From Candidatus Bathyarchaeum sp. (GTDB lineage Archaea > Thermoproteota > Bathyarchaeia > Bathyarchaeales > Bathyarchaeaceae): 18,282 nucleotides of DNA. Where the stretch lies: the NCBI GenBank assembly GCA_026014495.1, contig JAOZIF010000054.1, positions 1 to 18,282 on the forward strand. The letters are read 5' to 3'. Each line of letters starts with the position of its first letter. Position 1 is the stretch's first letter. The position numbers and the translations under genes are program-made. Of this stretch, positions 8,733-14,104 are shown in pieces. The notes under the pieces were generated by a model, which worked only from the letters and a program-made list of their open reading frames with translations, ran no database searches and was not told the origin of the DNA.

Positions 8733-8742
8733 ACTCCTCTAA

Positions 8743-8767
8743 TTAGTTGCTACTGGTATGCAACTAA
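8743..8767. other. 8-9-8 inverted repeat 10 nt after the permease stop (possible 3'-end hairpin)
   Basis: ttagttgc-tactggtat-gcaactaa. Confidence 0.35.
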
Positions 8768-9033
8768 CAAACACAACAATCAATTGAATGTTGATTTCTC
8801 CTTAATCGGGGGGGGATCAGCATTATTTCCTTTTTTCATTTTTTAATTATGCTCTTTTAATTGTTACTTTGGTGATGTTAAATGTTGTATTTGACCAAAA
8901 GATATGGCGACGAAAAAAAACAATGTATTGTCTATGTGCTTTGGTTCTCCTAATCTTTTAACATACAAAAATAAGCATTAACGTGTTTTTCTAGGAAAAT
9001 TTCTTAACCAACATATTTTTTGATATATTACAA

Positions 9034-9130
9034 AAGAATAGGGGTTTGCTGAGGCTCCTGCACGCGCATTAGAGGAGAAAAAAATGAAAAAAACAAAACA
9101 GCTACTACAGCTTTAGTTATTTTTCATTTT
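9034..9130 (+). repeat. ~100-bp dispersed element, copy 1 (inverted relative to copy 2)
   Basis: Hand alignment to the reverse complement of 13808-13906 gives 90 of 100 columns identical (6 substitutions, 4 gap positions). Contains GGGGTTTGCTGAGGC, GAGGAG-A7-TG and a long hairpin at 9081-9130. Confidence 0.9.
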
Positions 9131-9301
9131 CACTTTTTTCACACATTCACACTTTCAGAACAGTATCTGTTTAATGCTTGTTCTTATATTATTGATAAAA
9201 AAAGTGATAACGTGTTGTTTTATCCAGTATTTTTGATGATTGGTTCCAGCAATAACTGATATATTGCTCTGCACCTTTTTGAGTGAACAGGTAGAACCAA
9301 C

Positions 9302-10366
9302 TTGGATTGCGAAATCAAAATCGATGAAATTGACGTGCAGATTTTAAAAACTGTACTAAGCAATCCACGCGTCAGCTTTGCAGAAATCGCGAGACAATGC
9401 AAGATGTCAACCAATGCTATACGTATGAGGTTTAAAAGTTTGGAAGAAGCTGGCGTGATTACTGGTGCAAAATTACATGTAAGTCCCAAAATATTGGGAT
9501 TTGGATGCACTGCATCTTTGAATATCCAAGCACGTGTCAATGATGAGGAAAGTGTTTATGATTATTTGCAGAGCATTCCCAGTGTTTTCTTATGTTTTCA
9601 TTGGTTAAGCAAATGGAACTTTAACTGTGTTGTGGGCTTAAAGGATACTGCTGAACTAGCAGATTTGGTTGAACAAATAAAACGGCATTCAGGCGTTATT
9701 GATGTACAATCCTATATCTGGGTTGAACAAAAAAATGTGGATTTCCCAAAAAACCTCATCATTAAACCAACAGATAAACCGATATGTACAACTGAATTTT
9801 TACAAAACGAAACTAATCAGAAATTTGCATTCATTACTCAACCTGTTGATAACTTAGAATATCTGCATTATCTAAAAGAATCATTTAACATGGACCAAAC
9901 TGATTTGCGAATACTTAGAATCTTATCCGAAAATGCTTCCATTCCTTTCAGGAAAATCGCTAAGCAGCTTGACATTTCAACACAATCTGTAATACGACGA
10001 TACTCTAACTTGAAAAAAAACTTGAAGCTTTTTTCCTCAACGTCATTAAACCTTAAAAAACTAGGGTATGAAAGTATTATTGTTCTGTTCATAACTGCAT
10101 TGCCTCAATTTGAGACATCTCAAGTATTTGATAAACTATCTCAGATTCCGAACGTAATCACATTACACAAATGCTTTGGCTCGATTGATATATTGGCTAT
10201 AGCCCCTTTAACAAACTTTAAGCAACTATTTGATCTGAAACAAAGAGTCGTTAATACACTGGGTGTTAAGTCAATTGAAATATCTATGGGTGAACCGTTT
10301 TCCAGTTGGCCCCTGAACCCATTTGCTTCCCTTTTTGAAAAGCTTTCAAGTGAAGAGAACCAATGA
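9302..10366 (+). CDS. Tandem (double) Lrp/AsnC-family transcriptional regulator: two HTH+RAM units in one polypeptide
   Basis: Unit 1: IDEIDVQILKTV..NPRVSFAEIARQCKMSTNAIRMRFKSLEEAGVI. Unit 2: MDQTDLRILRILSENASIPFRKIAKQLDISTQSVIRRY. Each is followed by a RAM-like domain. The TTG start aligns with the start of the 15837 paralog. Confidence 0.92.
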   Translation: MDCEIKIDEIDVQILKTVLSNPRVSFAEIARQCKMSTNAIRMRFKSLEEAGVITGAKLHVSPKILGFGCTASLNIQARVNDEESVYDYLQSIPSVFLCFHWLSKWNFNCVVGLKDTAELADLVEQIKRHSGVIDVQSYIWVEQKNVDFPKNLIIKPTDKPICTTEFLQNETNQKFAFITQPVDNLEYLHYLKESFNMDQTDLRILRILSENASIPFRKIAKQLDISTQSVIRRYSNLKKNLKLFSSTSLNLKKLGYESIIVLFITALPQFETSQVFDKLSQIPNVITLHKCFGSIDILAIAPLTNFKQLFDLKQRVVNTLGVKSIEISMGEPFSSWPLNPFASLFEKLSSEENQ

Positions 10367-10420
10367 ACGCGAAATGCTTACATACTAACTTTGGTCGCCA
10401 ATTGTGTGATGTTTTACACG

Positions 10421-10594
10421 TTAATGTTGTGCCGTTAGTAAGTCAAGTTGTATACTCATTGGGTTGTGGGTAAGTTTTCGTCCGCAAGAGGGACATCTGC
10501 ATTCGTTTTTTGCTCGAACGTAGTATGGTGAAATGACTTCGCGTCCAGTGAATAGGGTTTTGCCGCATCCGTGGCATGATATTGATACTGCCAT
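10421..10594 (-). CDS. Small zinc-ribbon protein (57 aa; CxxC-x23-CxxC)
   Basis: MAVSISCHGCGKTLF...CRCPSCGRKL. ATG 10594 lies 1 nt after the stop of the upstream small ORF, so it is preferred over the track start at 10612. Confidence 0.75.
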   Translation of the reverse strand: MAVSISCHGCGKTLFTGREVISPYYVRAKNECRCPSCGRKLTHNPMSIQLDLLTAQH

Positions 10595-10595
10595 T

Positions 10596-10721
10596 TTAGG
10601 CAACCAGCACAAAGTTTGTTTCTAGAAGATTCTGGATTTCCTCATATCGTTCCTCTTCTGCGAGGATTTGGATGTAATTTAGTCTTTTTTTTACTTGGTC
10701 TTTGTAGTTTATTGTTTTCAA
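10596..10721 (-). CDS. 41-aa charged helical micro-protein (re-called start within track ORF 10596-10937)
   Basis: TTG at 10721 has a GGAGG SD 7 nt upstream (10729-10733) and a TTATTATA box at 10760-10767. Product MKTINYKDQVKKRLNYIQILAEEERYEEIQNLLETNFVLVA. Its stop abuts the zinc-ribbon ATG. Confidence 0.5.
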   Translation of the reverse strand: MKTINYKDQVKKRLNYIQILAEEERYEEIQNLLETNFVLVA

Positions 10722-10932
10722 TGTTTTTCCTCCTGTTGTTATCGCATCTTGTTGAATTGTATAATAAGGCTGGCGCCTGAACGACTTACAAAAGGGGGGA
10801 GAGAGGAGAGTGAAACTAAAAGAGAGGCTATCTGTAATTGGTGTTTGTTTTACTTTTTGGGGGGCTATCTGTTGCTTTCTTCTCTTTTTTATGTGAACTC
10901 GTGTTATTGGATGACTCCTTACATGTTTTAAC

Positions 10933-10966
10933 ATCATAACCTTATATGAGCATTTTAGGTTATGAT
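10933..10966. promoter_or_regulatory. Perfect 10-14-10 palindrome in the divergent region upstream of propeller gene 1
   Basis: atcataacct-N14-aggttatgat, flanked by ttaa on both sides. A second 6-7-6 palindrome, aatgtt-aaatctg-aacatt, lies at 10994-11012. Confidence 0.55.
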
Positions 10967-11052
10967 TTAATATTTTAAGTTGTTTTTATAGCAAATGTTA
11001 AATCTGAACATTAATCATAACTACTGGTCATTATCATAAAGGAGAAAAAAAG

Positions 11053-13728
11053 TTGAGAACAACCAAAAAATATCAATCAGTAAAACAAAAAACAGTTACA
11101 CTCAGTTTAGTTCTAATGTTAACCCTTTCAGCTATGGTAGTTGCTTTACCACTCATTCATGCGCAGGACGCGGACACATGGGACACCTATGCTTACATAG
11201 TTGTTTCACCAAACCCAACAGGCGTTAATCAAGCTGTCTTCGTAGTCTTTTGGATTGACAAAATTCCAGTATCAGCAGCAGGTGTTGGGGGTGACCGCTG
11301 GACTGATTACCGAATTAAAGTCACCAAGCCAAATGGCGACATTGACAACTTAGGACCATACATCTCTGACCCCACATCATCAGCATACGATATTTACACA
11401 CCTGACCAAATCGGTACATACTCGTTTGAGTTTACCTTCCCTGGACAGGTAGCCTCTTTGTATCACCCAGAAACAGGTATTGCTGGCTCAAACAGCCCAT
11501 ACATCGGTGATACTTTTCTAGGCAGCAGCGCAACAACAACTCTTACGGTAACCGAAGATGTAGTAGAGAAGATTCCGGAATATCCACTTCCAACAGAGTA
11601 CTGGACAAGACCAATAGAAGGACAAAACACAGCATGGGCAAGCATATCATCCAACTGGCTAAATGGAGACCCCGTTAGCACCTACAATTACCAGCCAGAC
11701 GGACTTGCACCTAACACAGCTCACGTAATGTGGACAAAATATCTACAAGACGGAGGAGTTGTTGGAGGCAACACCGCCATCGAGGGTCAAACCTACTACA
11801 TGGGTGACTCGTACGAAATGAGGTTCAATAATCCAATGATTATCCAAGGAAGACTCTACTACGACCTCCCACTGAGTAGCGACAAAAGCGGTGGAGGTTA
11901 CATGTGCGTTGATTTGCTTACTGGCGAAACAATATGGTACAGTGAAGACCTAGCTGTTGCAGATAATGCAGCACCATCATTTGGTCAAATCTTTGACTAC
12001 GAATCGTTCAACCAGCACGGTGCAACCAACGGCTACTTATGGCAAACTGCAGGCAACACTTGGAACGCATATGATGCAGTCACAGGAAAATGGCTATTCA
12101 CTCAAACCGAGGTCCCTTCAGGAACACAAAAATACGGTGACTATGGCGAGATATTGCGTTACGTGTATGACTCGGAAAACAAGTGGCTTGCTTTGTGGAA
12201 CAACACTCAGCACAACGTAGGACTAGAGAGGGCAACCACAGCTGATGGAACCACCGCAAATGACTATCAATGGCGACCTGTTGGAAAAGAGGTCAACATG
12301 AGCACAGCATACACATGGAACGTGACATTACCAAGTTCAATACCTGACGATTCAAGCGTTGTCCATGTTATCCCTGATGACTTAATGCTTTGTAGTACTC
12401 CCACCAATCCGTCAGGCTTTGCTAATTACGGAACATTGGCGCACACCATGTTTGCTATTAGTCTAAATCCTGCAACAAGAGGTGACCTACTATGGACGAA
12501 AACCTTCCCAACTGTAGACGGAGACATAAGCCAATTTACCGGTCCAATTGATGAAGTGAACCGTGTTTTCACAAAACTGAACAAAGAAACTATGCAATGG
12601 TCAGGCTATAGCCTAGACGACGGAAGCTACTTGTGGGGTCCAGTTGGAAATCCAAGAGACTTCCAAGTTTACAGTTCAAGGAGTGGAGGTGCAGGCTCGC
12701 AAGGAACAAGCGCTTATGGCATACTTTATGACGCAGGTTATGGTGGATTAGTCATCGCTTATGACACAGCGAACGGAGATGTTTTGTGGACTTATGGTAA
12801 CGGCGGAGAGGGCAACAGCACTAACAGTGGTCTTGAAACAGCATGGGGTAACTATCCAACTTTCATAGGCTGTATTGCAGACGGAAAAATCTACACTTTC
12901 ACCGCTGAGCACTCTGTTAACATGCCAATCTACAAAGACGCAAGAATACGTTGCATCGACGCTTTCACTGGAGAAGAACTATGGACTTTGATGGGCTTTG
13001 CTACTTCAACAAGTTTCTACAGTAGAATCGGAGCAATTGCAGATGGGTACCTAGCATATCTGAACGCCTATGACGGTCAAGTATACTGCATTGGCAAAGG
13101 ACCAAGCGAAACAACAGTCACAGCTTCACCTGAAATTATCGCATGTGGCACTAGCGTGATGATAAAGGGCTCAGTCATTGATACTGCTTCAGGCACAACA
13201 CAAAATGAGCAAGCTGCACGATTCCCACACGGTGTTCCCGCAGTTGCTGACAGCTGTATGAGCGAGTGGATGGAGTATGTGTACATGCAAAAGCCATTCC
13301 CAGACAACGTCGAAGGTGTTAGAGTAACCTTGACGGCAGTTGACGCAAACGGTAACACACAAAACATTGGCACAGTTACCACTGATGCTTCTGGAATGTT
13401 CAAGAAGATGTGGACTCCAGAGATTGAAGGCGAATACACTGTTATCGCTACCTTTGCAGGAACTGAATCCTATTGGGGTTCATACGCGCAAACAGCGTTC
13501 GGTGTTGATCCTGCCGTTTCTACAGCAGTTCCAATAACTCCAGAAGAACCAGAAACACCTGATACAGAAACTCCCGACACAGAAACACCTGACACTGAGA
13601 CACCAGACACAGAACAGCCAACAGCAGAAACAGCTCTGATTTCCACAGAAGTAGCAATCATTGCTGTTGTTGCAGTAGCTGTTGTCGTAGGTGCAGCAGC
13701 ATTCTGGACACTACGGAAACGAAAATAA
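11053..13728 (+). CDS. Membrane-anchored surface protein with PQQ-like (Trp-docking) beta-propeller, flanking Ig-like domains, Pro/Thr stalk and C-terminal TM
   Basis: Signal peptide ending ..VVALPLIHA. Repeats CVDLLTGETIW, AYDAVTGKW, YSLDDGSYLW, AYDTANGDVLW and CIDAFTGEELW. C-terminal TM + RKRK. SD AAGGAG before the TTG. Confidence 0.92.
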   Translation: MRTTKKYQSVKQKTVTLSLVLMLTLSAMVVALPLIHAQDADTWDTYAYIVVSPNPTGVNQAVFVVFWIDKIPVSAAGVGGDRWTDYRIKVTKPNGDIDNLGPYISDPTSSAYDIYTPDQIGTYSFEFTFPGQVASLYHPETGIAGSNSPYIGDTFLGSSATTTLTVTEDVVEKIPEYPLPTEYWTRPIEGQNTAWASISSNWLNGDPVSTYNYQPDGLAPNTAHVMWTKYLQDGGVVGGNTAIEGQTYYMGDSYEMRFNNPMIIQGRLYYDLPLSSDKSGGGYMCVDLLTGETIWYSEDLAVADNAAPSFGQIFDYESFNQHGATNGYLWQTAGNTWNAYDAVTGKWLFTQTEVPSGTQKYGDYGEILRYVYDSENKWLALWNNTQHNVGLERATTADGTTANDYQWRPVGKEVNMSTAYTWNVTLPSSIPDDSSVVHVIPDDLMLCSTPTNPSGFANYGTLAHTMFAISLNPATRGDLLWTKTFPTVDGDISQFTGPIDEVNRVFTKLNKETMQWSGYSLDDGSYLWGPVGNPRDFQVYSSRSGGAGSQGTSAYGILYDAGYGGLVIAYDTANGDVLWTYGNGGEGNSTNSGLETAWGNYPTFIGCIADGKIYTFTAEHSVNMPIYKDARIRCIDAFTGEELWTLMGFATSTSFYSRIGAIADGYLAYLNAYDGQVYCIGKGPSETTVTASPEIIACGTSVMIKGSVIDTASGTTQNEQAARFPHGVPAVADSCMSEWMEYVYMQKPFPDNVEGVRVTLTAVDANGNTQNIGTVTTDASGMFKKMWTPEIEGEYTVIATFAGTESYWGSYAQTAFGVDPAVSTAVPITPEEPETPDTETPDTETPDTETPDTEQPTAETALISTEVAIIAVVAVAVVVGAAAFWTLRKRK
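13552..13611 (+). repeat. Coding tandem repeat, 4 x 15 bp, encoding (ETPDT)4
   Basis: gaaacacctgataca/gaaactcccgacaca/gaaacacctgacact/gagacaccagacaca; units differ only at synonymous positions. Confidence 0.9.
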
Positions 13729-13735
13729 ACCAAAA

Positions 13736-13757
13736 TTTTCCCTCCCTTCTTTTTTTT
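13736..13757 (+). terminator. Archaeal-type pyrimidine/oligo-T terminator
   Basis: ttttccctcccttctttttttt starting 8 nt after the stop at 13728. Confidence 0.55.
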
Positions 13758-13807
13758 GGGAGTAAAACTTCAATGGAAGAAAAAGGGGCTGAAAAGGCTC
13801 AGGCACA

Positions 13808-13906
13808 AAAATGAAAAATAACAAAAGCTGTAGTAGCTATTTTGTTTTTTTCATTTTTTCTCCTCTTTAATGCACTGTGCATGGGCCTCAGCAAACCCCA
13901 ATTCTT
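13808..13906 (-). repeat. ~100-bp dispersed element, copy 2 (inverted relative to copy 1)
   Basis: Reverse complement matches 9034-9130 at 90 of 100 columns. Hairpin at 13808-13857: aaaatgaaaaa-t-aacaaa-agct-gtagt-agct-at-tttgtt-tttttcatttt. Confidence 0.9.
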
Positions 13907-14104
13907 CTGATTTTTCTGTGAACTAAAAATTGTACTAAAAAAGAGAGAACGTCATGTATATTTTTGAATCAAGTGATTTTCTGGATCAGTACTTGGTTCG
14001 AGACCTAGCTTGTGAAAAACAAAATGAAACCTCGGAACGTTATGTGAAGAGATGTTTCCTAAACTGTGGCGATATACTCGCGTTTAACACTCAGAACAGA
14101 ACTC

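Follow-up and report, generated by a model that had tools for sequence, protein, structure and literature searches.

Inverted repeats in a Candidatus Bathyarchaeum contig very probably belong to a structured 3′ trailer family of surface-protein genes

The two inverted repeats in the window, the whole 18,282-nucleotide stretch of Candidatus Bathyarchaeum sp. DNA analysed here, are very probably members of a gene-trailer family and not the boundaries of an inversion. The trailer itself is likely to be a multi-copy, genus-wide, structured non-coding 3′ end of C-terminally anchored surface-protein genes. Its conservation far exceeds that of the approximately 20 paralogous surface-protein genes it follows. 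It occurs across a genus of uncultured sediment archaea, and its base is shaped like a substrate of the tRNA-splicing enzyme. Processing, if it takes place, would make it the first repeated 3′-UTR substrate of the tRNA-splicing endonuclease and would offer a handle on the control of a large surface-receptor family in Bathyarchaeia.

The inverted-repeat pair reported in the preliminary description is real. Positions 9031–9130 (in copy A) match the reverse complement of 13808–13909 (in copy B) with 89.3% identity over 103 columns (BLASTN, E 1e-30), and a repeat search of the window resolves two arms, 9079–9130/13808–13859 (52 nt, 96% complementary) and 9031–9063/13877–13909 (33 nt, 88%). Each copy is individually an imperfect palindrome. 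The surroundings are also as described there: both copies lie in long gaps (8733–9301 for copy A and 13729–14104 for copy B), they enclose a double-Lrp gene, two small minus-strand ORFs and propeller gene 1, and a Pfam scan finds no recombinase or transposase domain in the main ORFs of the 18-kb window. The extents needed correction. Both arms exist, but the right copy is longer than described, extending from the stop codon (13728) to position 13909, and the left copy is by its model score a truncated version. The features are as follows.

9031–9155, minus strand: orphan copy A, truncated (model R1 and alignments)
9131–9301, no strand: 171-nt gap from copy A to the double-Lrp start (gene map and relatives)
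9302–10366, plus strand: double-Lrp/AsnC regulator gene (Pfam PF13404, PF13412 and PF01037, each twice)
10421–10937, minus strand: two small ORFs (gene map)
11053–13728, plus strand: propeller gene 1, 891 aa, PQQ-like beta-propeller (Pfam PF13360)
13729–13909, plus strand: full copy B overall, directly after the propeller gene 1 stop codon (sequence and model R1)
13729–13773, plus strand: first trailer module, oligo-T hairpin (sequence; layout kept in homologues)
13774–13909, plus strand: trailer core of copy B (model R1, fold and covariation)

The double-Lrp gene lies outside the repeat element and is context only.

The host gene of copy B is propeller gene 1, whose product has at its C-terminus an acidic Thr/Pro/Glu stalk, followed by a membrane helix and an RKRK tail. 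An NCBIfam search of this protein for known C-terminal sorting-signal families gave no match. The first trailer module forms a 5-bp hairpin (13742–13746/13758–13762) with an 8-nt oligo-T tract (13750–13757) in its loop. This layout is kept in 21 copies of this genome and after homologous genes across the genus, and the module is a probable primary archaeal termination signal. The core, whose 3′ two-thirds had been described as the right arm, scores 139 bits with model R1 (E 1e-32), and its fold has a z-score of −5.5 relative to shuffled sequence. From the outside inward, an outer helix encloses a bulge-helix-bulge base with an outer part (13785–13787/13896–13898), a central helix of 4 bp (13788–13791/13889–13892), two 3-nt bulges (13792–13794 and 13893–13895) and an inner helix (13795–13800/13883–13888). 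Above the inner helix come a small internal loop, a 4-bp helix (13803–13806/13877–13880) and a long A/U hairpin (13807–13859) with two T6–7 tracts. The C/U-rich stretch 13860–13876 is single-stranded in the predicted fold.

The family has 29–31 copies in the 2.19-Mb genome (BLASTN and model search). It is present in 23 of the 24 genomes of the genus searched, in none of 12 other genera of the same family and in two of three genomes of one other family. The full module of about 190 nt is in gene sense and directly follows the stop codon. In this genome, 20 of the 23 ORFs ending in a membrane helix and a basic RKRK-type tail have the element immediately downstream of their stop codon, and 21–22 of the approximately 30 copies follow such a gene at a fixed distance. 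Most host gene products are beta-propeller proteins of about 850–920 aa, and elsewhere in the genus most homologous genes are followed by the same layout. Three family genes lack the core and have T9–10 tracts instead. Orphan or truncated copies also occur (C45, C141, C123 and window copy A), and several copies lie near contig ends. Rfam 15 gives no match at E ≤ 1 for copy A or copy B, the only match in the window being a chance one elsewhere, and a literature search found no published description of the family.

Mean pairwise DNA identity is 77% in the trailer, compared with 52% in mid-coding sequence and 52% in the DNA beyond it, and the host proteins are old paralogues of 32% identity. Fold z-scores are −4.5 to −5.5. 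In the cross-genome alignment of the basal stem, 13 of 18 pairs have changes on both sides and 93% of cells are paired, values reached by none of 500 shuffles, though this alignment was fitted to the model and thus favours the model's structure. The covariation supports the basal stems of the trailer, and the outer and inner helices flanking the central helix both show compensating changes. Folding of the sense strand is more favourable than that of the antisense strand by 2.7 kcal/mol (37 of 53 copies), while the count of wobble pairs, 24 sense-only and 19 antisense-only cells, does not distinguish the strands. Base-pair covariation, together with the strand-specific polarity of the bulge-helix-bulge motif, points to a role of the trailer at the RNA level. 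In Neisseria, the Sma/Cla repeat is a conserved 3′ block after pilin loci with a DNA-level role in recombination. The trailer is similar in that conserved non-coding sequence directly follows each member of a diversified surface-protein family, but its evidence points to RNA. Inspection spoke against reading the conserved CUGA as a K-turn or C/D box, as neither strand has the tandem G·A arrangement.

Copy A holds at 9031–9130 the left arm first described. Its model R1 score is 71 bits (139 for copy B), with most basal pairs flagged as non-standard. What remains, with 89–93% identity to other copies, is the A/U hairpin, the C/U-rich stretch and the 3′ side of the basal stem; the 5′ strand of that stem is absent, as are the oligo-T hairpin and a host gene. 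Because this 5′ strand is missing, the bulge-helix-bulge base is unable to form. The fold of copy A is no better than that of shuffled sequence (z = −1.6). In relatives G005, G020 and G024, a double-Lrp gene is divergent from a propeller gene of about 840–896 aa, which is followed by the trailer; a whole propeller gene and a divergent promoter region lie between trailer and double-Lrp gene. In the window, copy A is on the strand expected from these relatives and is 171 nt from the double-Lrp start. Most simply, it would be the relic of a deleted propeller gene once divergent from the double-Lrp gene. The earlier proposal of a duplication scar could apply to the left copy only, and even there a deleted divergent propeller gene fits better. 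For 9131–9290, similarity to family promoters and leaders in a three-way alignment does not exceed that of 1437 control upstream regions; since the leaders are near background identity (56%), this homology test has no power. Within the genus, identity to the closest double-Lrp homologues is only 46–47%, and a metagenome scan for strain-level comparison gave no match. A third decayed copy at about 8790–8860, suspected by eye, has no model match there with filters off, and a duplicated promoter upstream of copy A comes down to a 26-nt match of 77% (8968–8993/9197–9222), not significant on its own.

The base of the core has the geometry of a splicing-endonuclease substrate, in which two 3-nt bulges on opposite strands are separated by a 4-bp helix (PMC7714728). 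This 3-4-3 arrangement persists in 34 sequences drawn from many genomes, and one sequence has a change from A-U to G-C at the pair closing the 5′ bulge. The polarity, in which each strand carries its bulge on the 3′ side of its part of the central helix, is that of the host tRNA-Arg(UCU) and tRNA-Leu(CAA) introns and is seen on the gene strand only. The geometry is not perfect in all copies. An alternative register with a fifth pair is equally stable, and among 21 copies of this genome about 9 have an extra A or an A·C mismatch at the first central-helix pair, one of them with a compensating change. The genome encodes two EndA-domain genes and RtcB. Cleavage of the trailer core by the archaeal splicing endonuclease is a tentative but quite possible assignment. 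Under this model, the oligo-T hairpin after the stop codon would end part of the transcripts, and read-through transcripts would bear the core of about 135 nt folded as a rod with the 3-4-3 bulge-helix-bulge at its base. Cleavage would free an RNA of about 100 nt (13794–13894 in copy B), which RtcB could circularise, and the ligated mRNA 3′ end would remain as a short hairpin. Three strong oligo-T tracts precede the basal stem's 3′ half, so many transcripts may end before the motif forms. Because the predicted junction reads can be specified to the nucleotide, the processing prediction is directly testable in existing metatranscriptomes.

Bulge-helix-bulge segments outside tRNA and rRNA include the Crenarchaeota cbf5 pre-mRNA intron and the 5′-UTR intron of Haloferax volcanii HVO_1309 (PMC7714728). 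The trailer resembles them in its 4-bp helix, in its two opposite-strand 3-nt bulges between helices, in its location in mRNA and in the presence of EndA and RtcB in the host. It differs in lying in the 3′ UTR, with about 30 repeats per genome after one gene class, in enclosing a conserved structured RNA of about 100 nt, and in having an imperfect central helix in about half of the local copies; cleavage here is a prediction.

The freed RNA would display the C/U-rich stretch, which is able to pair with ribosome-binding sites. Pairing of this stretch with translation starts is better for family genes than for others (Mann-Whitney p = 0.003), with many unrelated genes equal to them, and the complementarity to ribosome-binding sites is generic. 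A contact between the 5′ and 3′ ends of one mRNA was rejected: own leader and own trailer pair with −18.8 kcal/mol and non-own combinations with −19.9 kcal/mol (permutation p = 0.94). An action of the trailer RNA in trans against ribosome sites is considered unlikely. The broader proposal, in which the trailers constitute a new archaeal RNA class of about 100 nt, possibly circular, cut by the endonuclease from 3′ UTRs and pairing with ribosome-binding sites of exported-protein mRNAs, is similarly doubtful. If true, expression of one surface gene would feed back on the translation of others.

The arrangement of the two copies had been read as an invertible cassette, in which the copies recombine, flip the 4.7-kb segment and alter expression of the double-Lrp and propeller genes. 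The segment is indeed flanked by approximately 100 bp of inverted homology at 89%, and propeller gene 1 would end beside a same-strand trailer copy in either orientation. As in Hin/Gin, fim and Bacteroides invertons, the inverted repeats flank regulator and surface-protein genes. However, the repeat has about 30 copies and is not locus-specific, the strand of the copies follows their host genes, and inverted trailer pairs are found elsewhere too (in G005 at 794281/797253 and 1227711/1228486). The main ORFs of the window contain no invertase or other recombinase (Pfam scan), the arms share no exact run longer than 20 nt and that run is A-rich, and the left copy is truncated and decayed and not a maintained site. 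The flanks are unique, and the assembly has no alternative-junction contig. The promoters, presumed from the gene map to lie in the gap upstream of each gene, would sit inside the segment and flip along with their genes, so promoter-gene links would be unchanged and no promoter would be re-aimed. Inversion is thus extremely unlikely, and this part of the preliminary description has no support. The repeats being one full and one truncated trailer copy, they do not mark a segment built to flip; the inverted arrangement most likely reflects the strands of past and present host genes. The apparent cassette arises incidentally from a gene trailer present in many copies, and annotation of a phase-variation system here is unwarranted. 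The alternative of an undescribed dispersed element is borne out in copy number (29–31 in the genome search) but not in distribution, as the copies are not scattered and take a fixed place after stop codons. A MITE-like non-autonomous element, spread by transposition and happening to prefer sites downstream of genes, would account for a multi-copy imperfect palindrome with inverted ends, for the orphan and truncated copies (C45, C141, C123 and window copy A) and for several copies near contig ends. The trailer shares with REP/BIME elements and MITEs its short, palindromic, intergenic and multi-copy nature. In contrast to them, it is anchored to the stop codons of a single gene class, with a fixed distance and an upstream module in at least 20 copies and across the genus. 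No target-site duplication is found (in 24 copies, the longest word common to both flanks has a mean length of 3.8 nt), no transposase lies beside any copy inspected, and the host genes are old paralogues with 32% protein identity. Base pairs are kept through compensating changes across genomes of the genus, which argues for selection on structure rather than recent spread. Transposition is accordingly improbable as an origin; fixed placement, the lack of target-site duplication and genus-wide structure together favour a functional gene trailer.

The opposite strand could carry a small gene, either a small RNA or a micro-ORF, with its ribosome-binding site and start in the hairpin and its end at T5-CA-T5. 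This strand does have a canonical ribosome-binding site, a correctly spaced ATG, a hairpin and T runs, and the 100 nt conserved in copy A are exactly that unit. Against it, the micro-ORF varies in length, frame and sequence (5 or 10 aa, or no stop for dozens of codons) and its ATG is changed to ACG in two copies, and on these grounds it was rejected. There is no conserved promoter at a fixed distance, and conservation starts about 10 nt before the stem. The antisense strand folds less well and has the wrong bulge-helix-bulge polarity, and the opposite-strand gene is very unlikely overall. A stronger case can be made for a pure terminator or insulator, a reinforced multi-tract stop and mRNA 3′-end stabiliser for highly expressed surface-protein genes, with neither excision nor a trans-acting RNA; we regard it as possible, though not probable. 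The sense strand has three T6–8 tracts, and the three core-less family genes have T9–10 tracts. In Methanococcus, termination efficacy and the strength of aCPSF1 binding both rise with the number of U tracts (PMC8716108), which counts in its favour. As with aCPSF1 U-tract terminators, several oligo-U tracts follow the stop, and partial read-through would yield short and long 3′ ends. Consecutive archaeal terminators reportedly lead to alternative 3′-UTR isoforms, as Dar et al. are said to have found in 2016. However, known U-tract terminators are short and not conserved in sequence, while the trailer is a module of about 190 nt with covarying helices, common to paralogues of 32% identity. Archaeal termination is not known to need a 135-nt structure. 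Within the trailer, the part that is best conserved and covaries is the basal stem, including the two 3-nt bulges, and all T tracts lie upstream of this stem's 3′ strand.

The inverted repeat noted in the preliminary description (9034–9130 and 13808–13906) is present in the window. A repeat search of the window resolves it into two arm pairs, 9079–9130 with 13808–13859 (52 nt, 96% complementary) and 9031–9063 with 13877–13909 (33 nt, 88% complementary), which BLASTN joins as a single alignment over 103 columns (89.3% identity, E 1e-30). The long intergenic gaps reported around the repeats are also found, at 8733–9301 for the left arm (copy A) and 13729–14104 for the right arm (copy B). The gene map and domain assignments agree with the contents described between them, and the scanned ORFs of the window contain no recombinase or transposase domain, as had been stated.

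Repeats of the window and the genes between them
9031–9155, minus strand: copy A
9302–10366: double-Lrp/AsnC gene
10421–10937, minus strand: two small ORFs, one encoding a CxxC zinc-ribbon protein
11053–13728: propeller gene 1, 891 aa, PQQ-like β-propeller
13729–13909, plus strand: copy B

Both arms belong to a repeat family. In the window's own genome (G000; 2.19 Mb in 196 contigs, 41% G+C, 93% complete) about 25 copies are found with the left arm as query. The genome-wide BLASTN count proposed earlier gives 29–31 copies with the full right copy, as does a covariance model of the unit's core (R1). The repeat of about 100 bp is real but only part of the unit, and most copies run 90 nt further. 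When copies are aligned with their flanks, these longer copies are seen to terminate at a stop codon in reverse complement. The unit is thus a trailer of ~190 nt behind a gene. Read in gene sense, it comprises ~10 nt past the stop codon, a 5-bp hairpin with an oligo-T tract of 7–8 as its loop, a ~20-nt spacer and, at the end, a ~135-nt core.

The trailer directly follows the stop codon in 20 of the 23 G000 ORFs with a hydrophobic helix and an RKRK-type tail at the C-terminus, and 21–22 copies stand behind such an anchor-type gene. Three anchor-type genes lack the core and carry plain T9–10 tracts in its place. The products, that of propeller gene 1 included, are mostly 830–920 aa long with an acidic Thr/Pro/Glu stalk ahead of the anchor. 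In G000, most of these genes have an A-rich ribosome-binding region and, ~50–58 nt ahead of the start codon, a TTAAAT-like box that probably serves as TATA box in a common promoter type.

The R1 search finds 1–21 copies per genome in 23 of 24 genomes of the same genus, and copies in two of three genomes from one other family of the order. In 12 further genera of the family, searched with the stricter filters of large searches, R1 has no match. Homologous genes in other genomes are followed by the identical layout at most of the loci retrieved. Tandem arrays of these genes occur in two relatives (G013 contig C11, at 48400, 52413, 55763 and 58663, all plus strand; G003 contig C2), with a same-strand trailer behind each gene and a spacing of 3–4 kb. 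Many G000 copies are close to contig ends, at distances of no more than a few hundred bases (C58, C96, C141, C54, C84, C106, C59 and C100). The trailer and the repeated stalk/anchor coding sequence probably break this assembly, and the gene count of the family is therefore a lower bound. An Rfam 15 search of the window matched no family at copy A or B, and full-text literature searches found no description of the trailer family.

Mean pairwise identity of twelve complete paralogues, by region
First 190 nt after the stop codon (DNA): 77%
Last 150 nt of coding sequence (DNA): 65%
Middle of the gene (DNA): 52%
100 nt upstream of the start (DNA): 56%
150 nt beyond the trailer (DNA): 52%
Proteins: 32%

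The non-coding trailer is conserved far beyond its gene, and is therefore either under selection of its own or homogenised by gene conversion.

The predicted fold of the sense-strand cores is a rod (z-scores −4.5 to −5.5). From the outside inward, the rod consists of an outer helix, three G-C pairs and a 4-bp helix GCUG/CAGC, which is flanked by two 3-nt bulges, mostly AAA, on opposite strands. Inside the bulges follow a 6-bp inner helix, a 2×2 internal loop, a 4-bp helix and a long A/U hairpin. The core also contains a single-stranded C/U-rich stretch of 17–18 nt. In an alignment of 34 cores drawn from many genomes, two-sided changes occur at 13 of the 18 basal pairs, 93% of cells are paired and none of 500 shuffles attains the observed values; this alignment was fitted to the model and is thus biased towards the modelled structure. 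The G000 copies alone give four pairs with changes on both sides. Bulge length is constant at 3 nt over the 34 sequences while the bulge letters vary, and the A-U pair closing the 5′ bulge is replaced by G-C in one sequence. The interior has diverged in the distant members from the other family, yet the 3-4-3 geometry and a C/U-rich stretch persist. In ~9 of 21 aligned G000 copies the first G of the central helix is A, giving an A·C mismatch or an extra A, with a compensating U in one of them. Shifting the register to a 5-bp helix gives a fold of equal stability.

A 4-bp helix between two 3-nt bulges is the bulge-helix-bulge (BHB) motif (PMC7714728), the substrate shape of the archaeal splicing endonuclease, EndA. 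In the G000 pre-tRNA-Arg(UCU) and pre-tRNA-Leu(CAA), each strand reads 5′ to 3′ as helix, central 4 nt, 3-nt bulge and helix. The trailer has this polarity on the gene strand only, and the opposite strand gives the mirror form. Both BHB geometry and polarity are thus confirmed. Wobble leaves the strand undecided (24 cells pair on the sense strand only, 19 on the antisense only). Folding favours the sense strand by 2.7 kcal/mol, in 37 of 53 copies; because the copies are related, the p-value overstates this difference. Aligned copies with flanks show no conserved promoter ahead of the unit on the opposite strand. The fixed position relative to the stop codon, the fold energy and the BHB polarity favour the gene strand. 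G000 encodes RtcB and two separate EndA-domain genes (C115:15549–15806 and C16:40222–40476, in open frames of ~187 and 200 aa). Two separate genes suggest a heteromeric, broad-specificity splicing endonuclease; the heteromeric enzyme of TACK archaea tolerates looser BHB forms (PMC7714728). The nearest literature concerns BHB processing of rRNA, tRNA and two mRNAs (PMC7714728). Three T6–8 tracts lie ahead of the 3′ half of the basal stem. In Methanococcus the median efficacy is ~55% even where a terminator has more than two U tracts (PMC8716108), which makes read-through of the T6–8 tracts plausible.

Copy B is the complete trailer of propeller gene 1 and scores 139 bits with R1; copy A scores 71 bits. 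At 89–93% identity, copy A still has the A/U hairpin, the C/U-rich stretch and the 3′ basal strand; the oligo-T hairpin, the 5′ basal strand and any gene are missing. As the 5′ strand is missing, the basal motif cannot form. A trailer truncated as in copy A stands behind a family gene ending in LLKRK (G000 C44:1125–1244, locus L034); there the 5′ basal strand is gone, and the oligo-T hairpin remains together with the 3′ two-thirds of the core.

In three relatives (G005, G020 and G024) a double-Lrp gene is divergent from a propeller gene of ~840–896 aa, followed by a trailer. The second module of the window is arranged likewise, with propeller gene 2 divergent from an Lrp pair; any trailer of this gene would lie beyond the contig end, which falls within propeller gene 2. 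Copy A is separated from the double-Lrp start by 171 nt, and its strand is the one expected for a missing divergent partner. The simplest account of copy A is a deletion of ~2.7 kb that would have taken out a propeller ORF together with the initial third of the trailer behind it. Comparison of the gap between copy A and the double-Lrp gene with family leaders gives no homology support for the deletion, the leaders being near background identity (56%). The window's double-Lrp gene is co-directional with propeller gene 1, with the two-gene zinc-ribbon unit between them on the other strand, and in several genomes of the genus (loci L079, L080 and L081) a fused double-Lrp regulator is paired divergently with a surface propeller gene. 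Copy A is also flanked by a 26-nt direct repeat (8968–8993 and 9197–9222, 77% identity) that shares a 9-mer with a CGTG core. The second of its two copies precedes the double-Lrp gene; the repeat may be a regulator site or a chance match.

The preliminary description proposed that recombination between the repeats flips the segment. An occasional homologous flip may occur, but an invertible cassette is not borne out. The repeats are not specific to this locus, one arm is a decayed fragment, and the longest identical run between the arms is 20 A-rich bases. The scanned window ORFs include no invertase; the flanks are unique and the other junction is on no contig of the assembly. As the segment itself contains the presumed promoter regions, no promoter would be re-aimed by a flip. 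Inverted trailer pairs are also found elsewhere, because host genes lie on both strands. A metagenome scan for cassette comparison gave no matches, and in the nearest genomes the double-Lrp is only 46–47% identical, too distant for comparing orientation. The other reading offered, a dispersed non-autonomous element, holds for the multiple copies, some of them orphans. A MITE-type mobile element is nevertheless unlikely, as the copies show no target-site duplications, none of those inspected has a neighbouring transposase, their contexts are uniform rather than varied, and their structure is maintained by compensating changes.

The opposite strand of the core resembles a ribosome-binding site, an A-rich spacer, ATG and Lys codons, so that translation starts of this kind are complementary to the sense RNA. 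A micro-ORF on that strand was rejected, as it is not conserved among copies. Among 1489 crudely called genes, a trailer probe pairs with the starts of 16 family genes at a median of about −22 kcal/mol, versus −17.5 kcal/mol for the rest (p = 0.003). Leaders fit their own trailers no better than other trailers (p = 0.94), and many unrelated genes, often with signal-peptide-like starts, pair with the probe equally well or better. The complementarity to ribosome-binding sites is real but generic.
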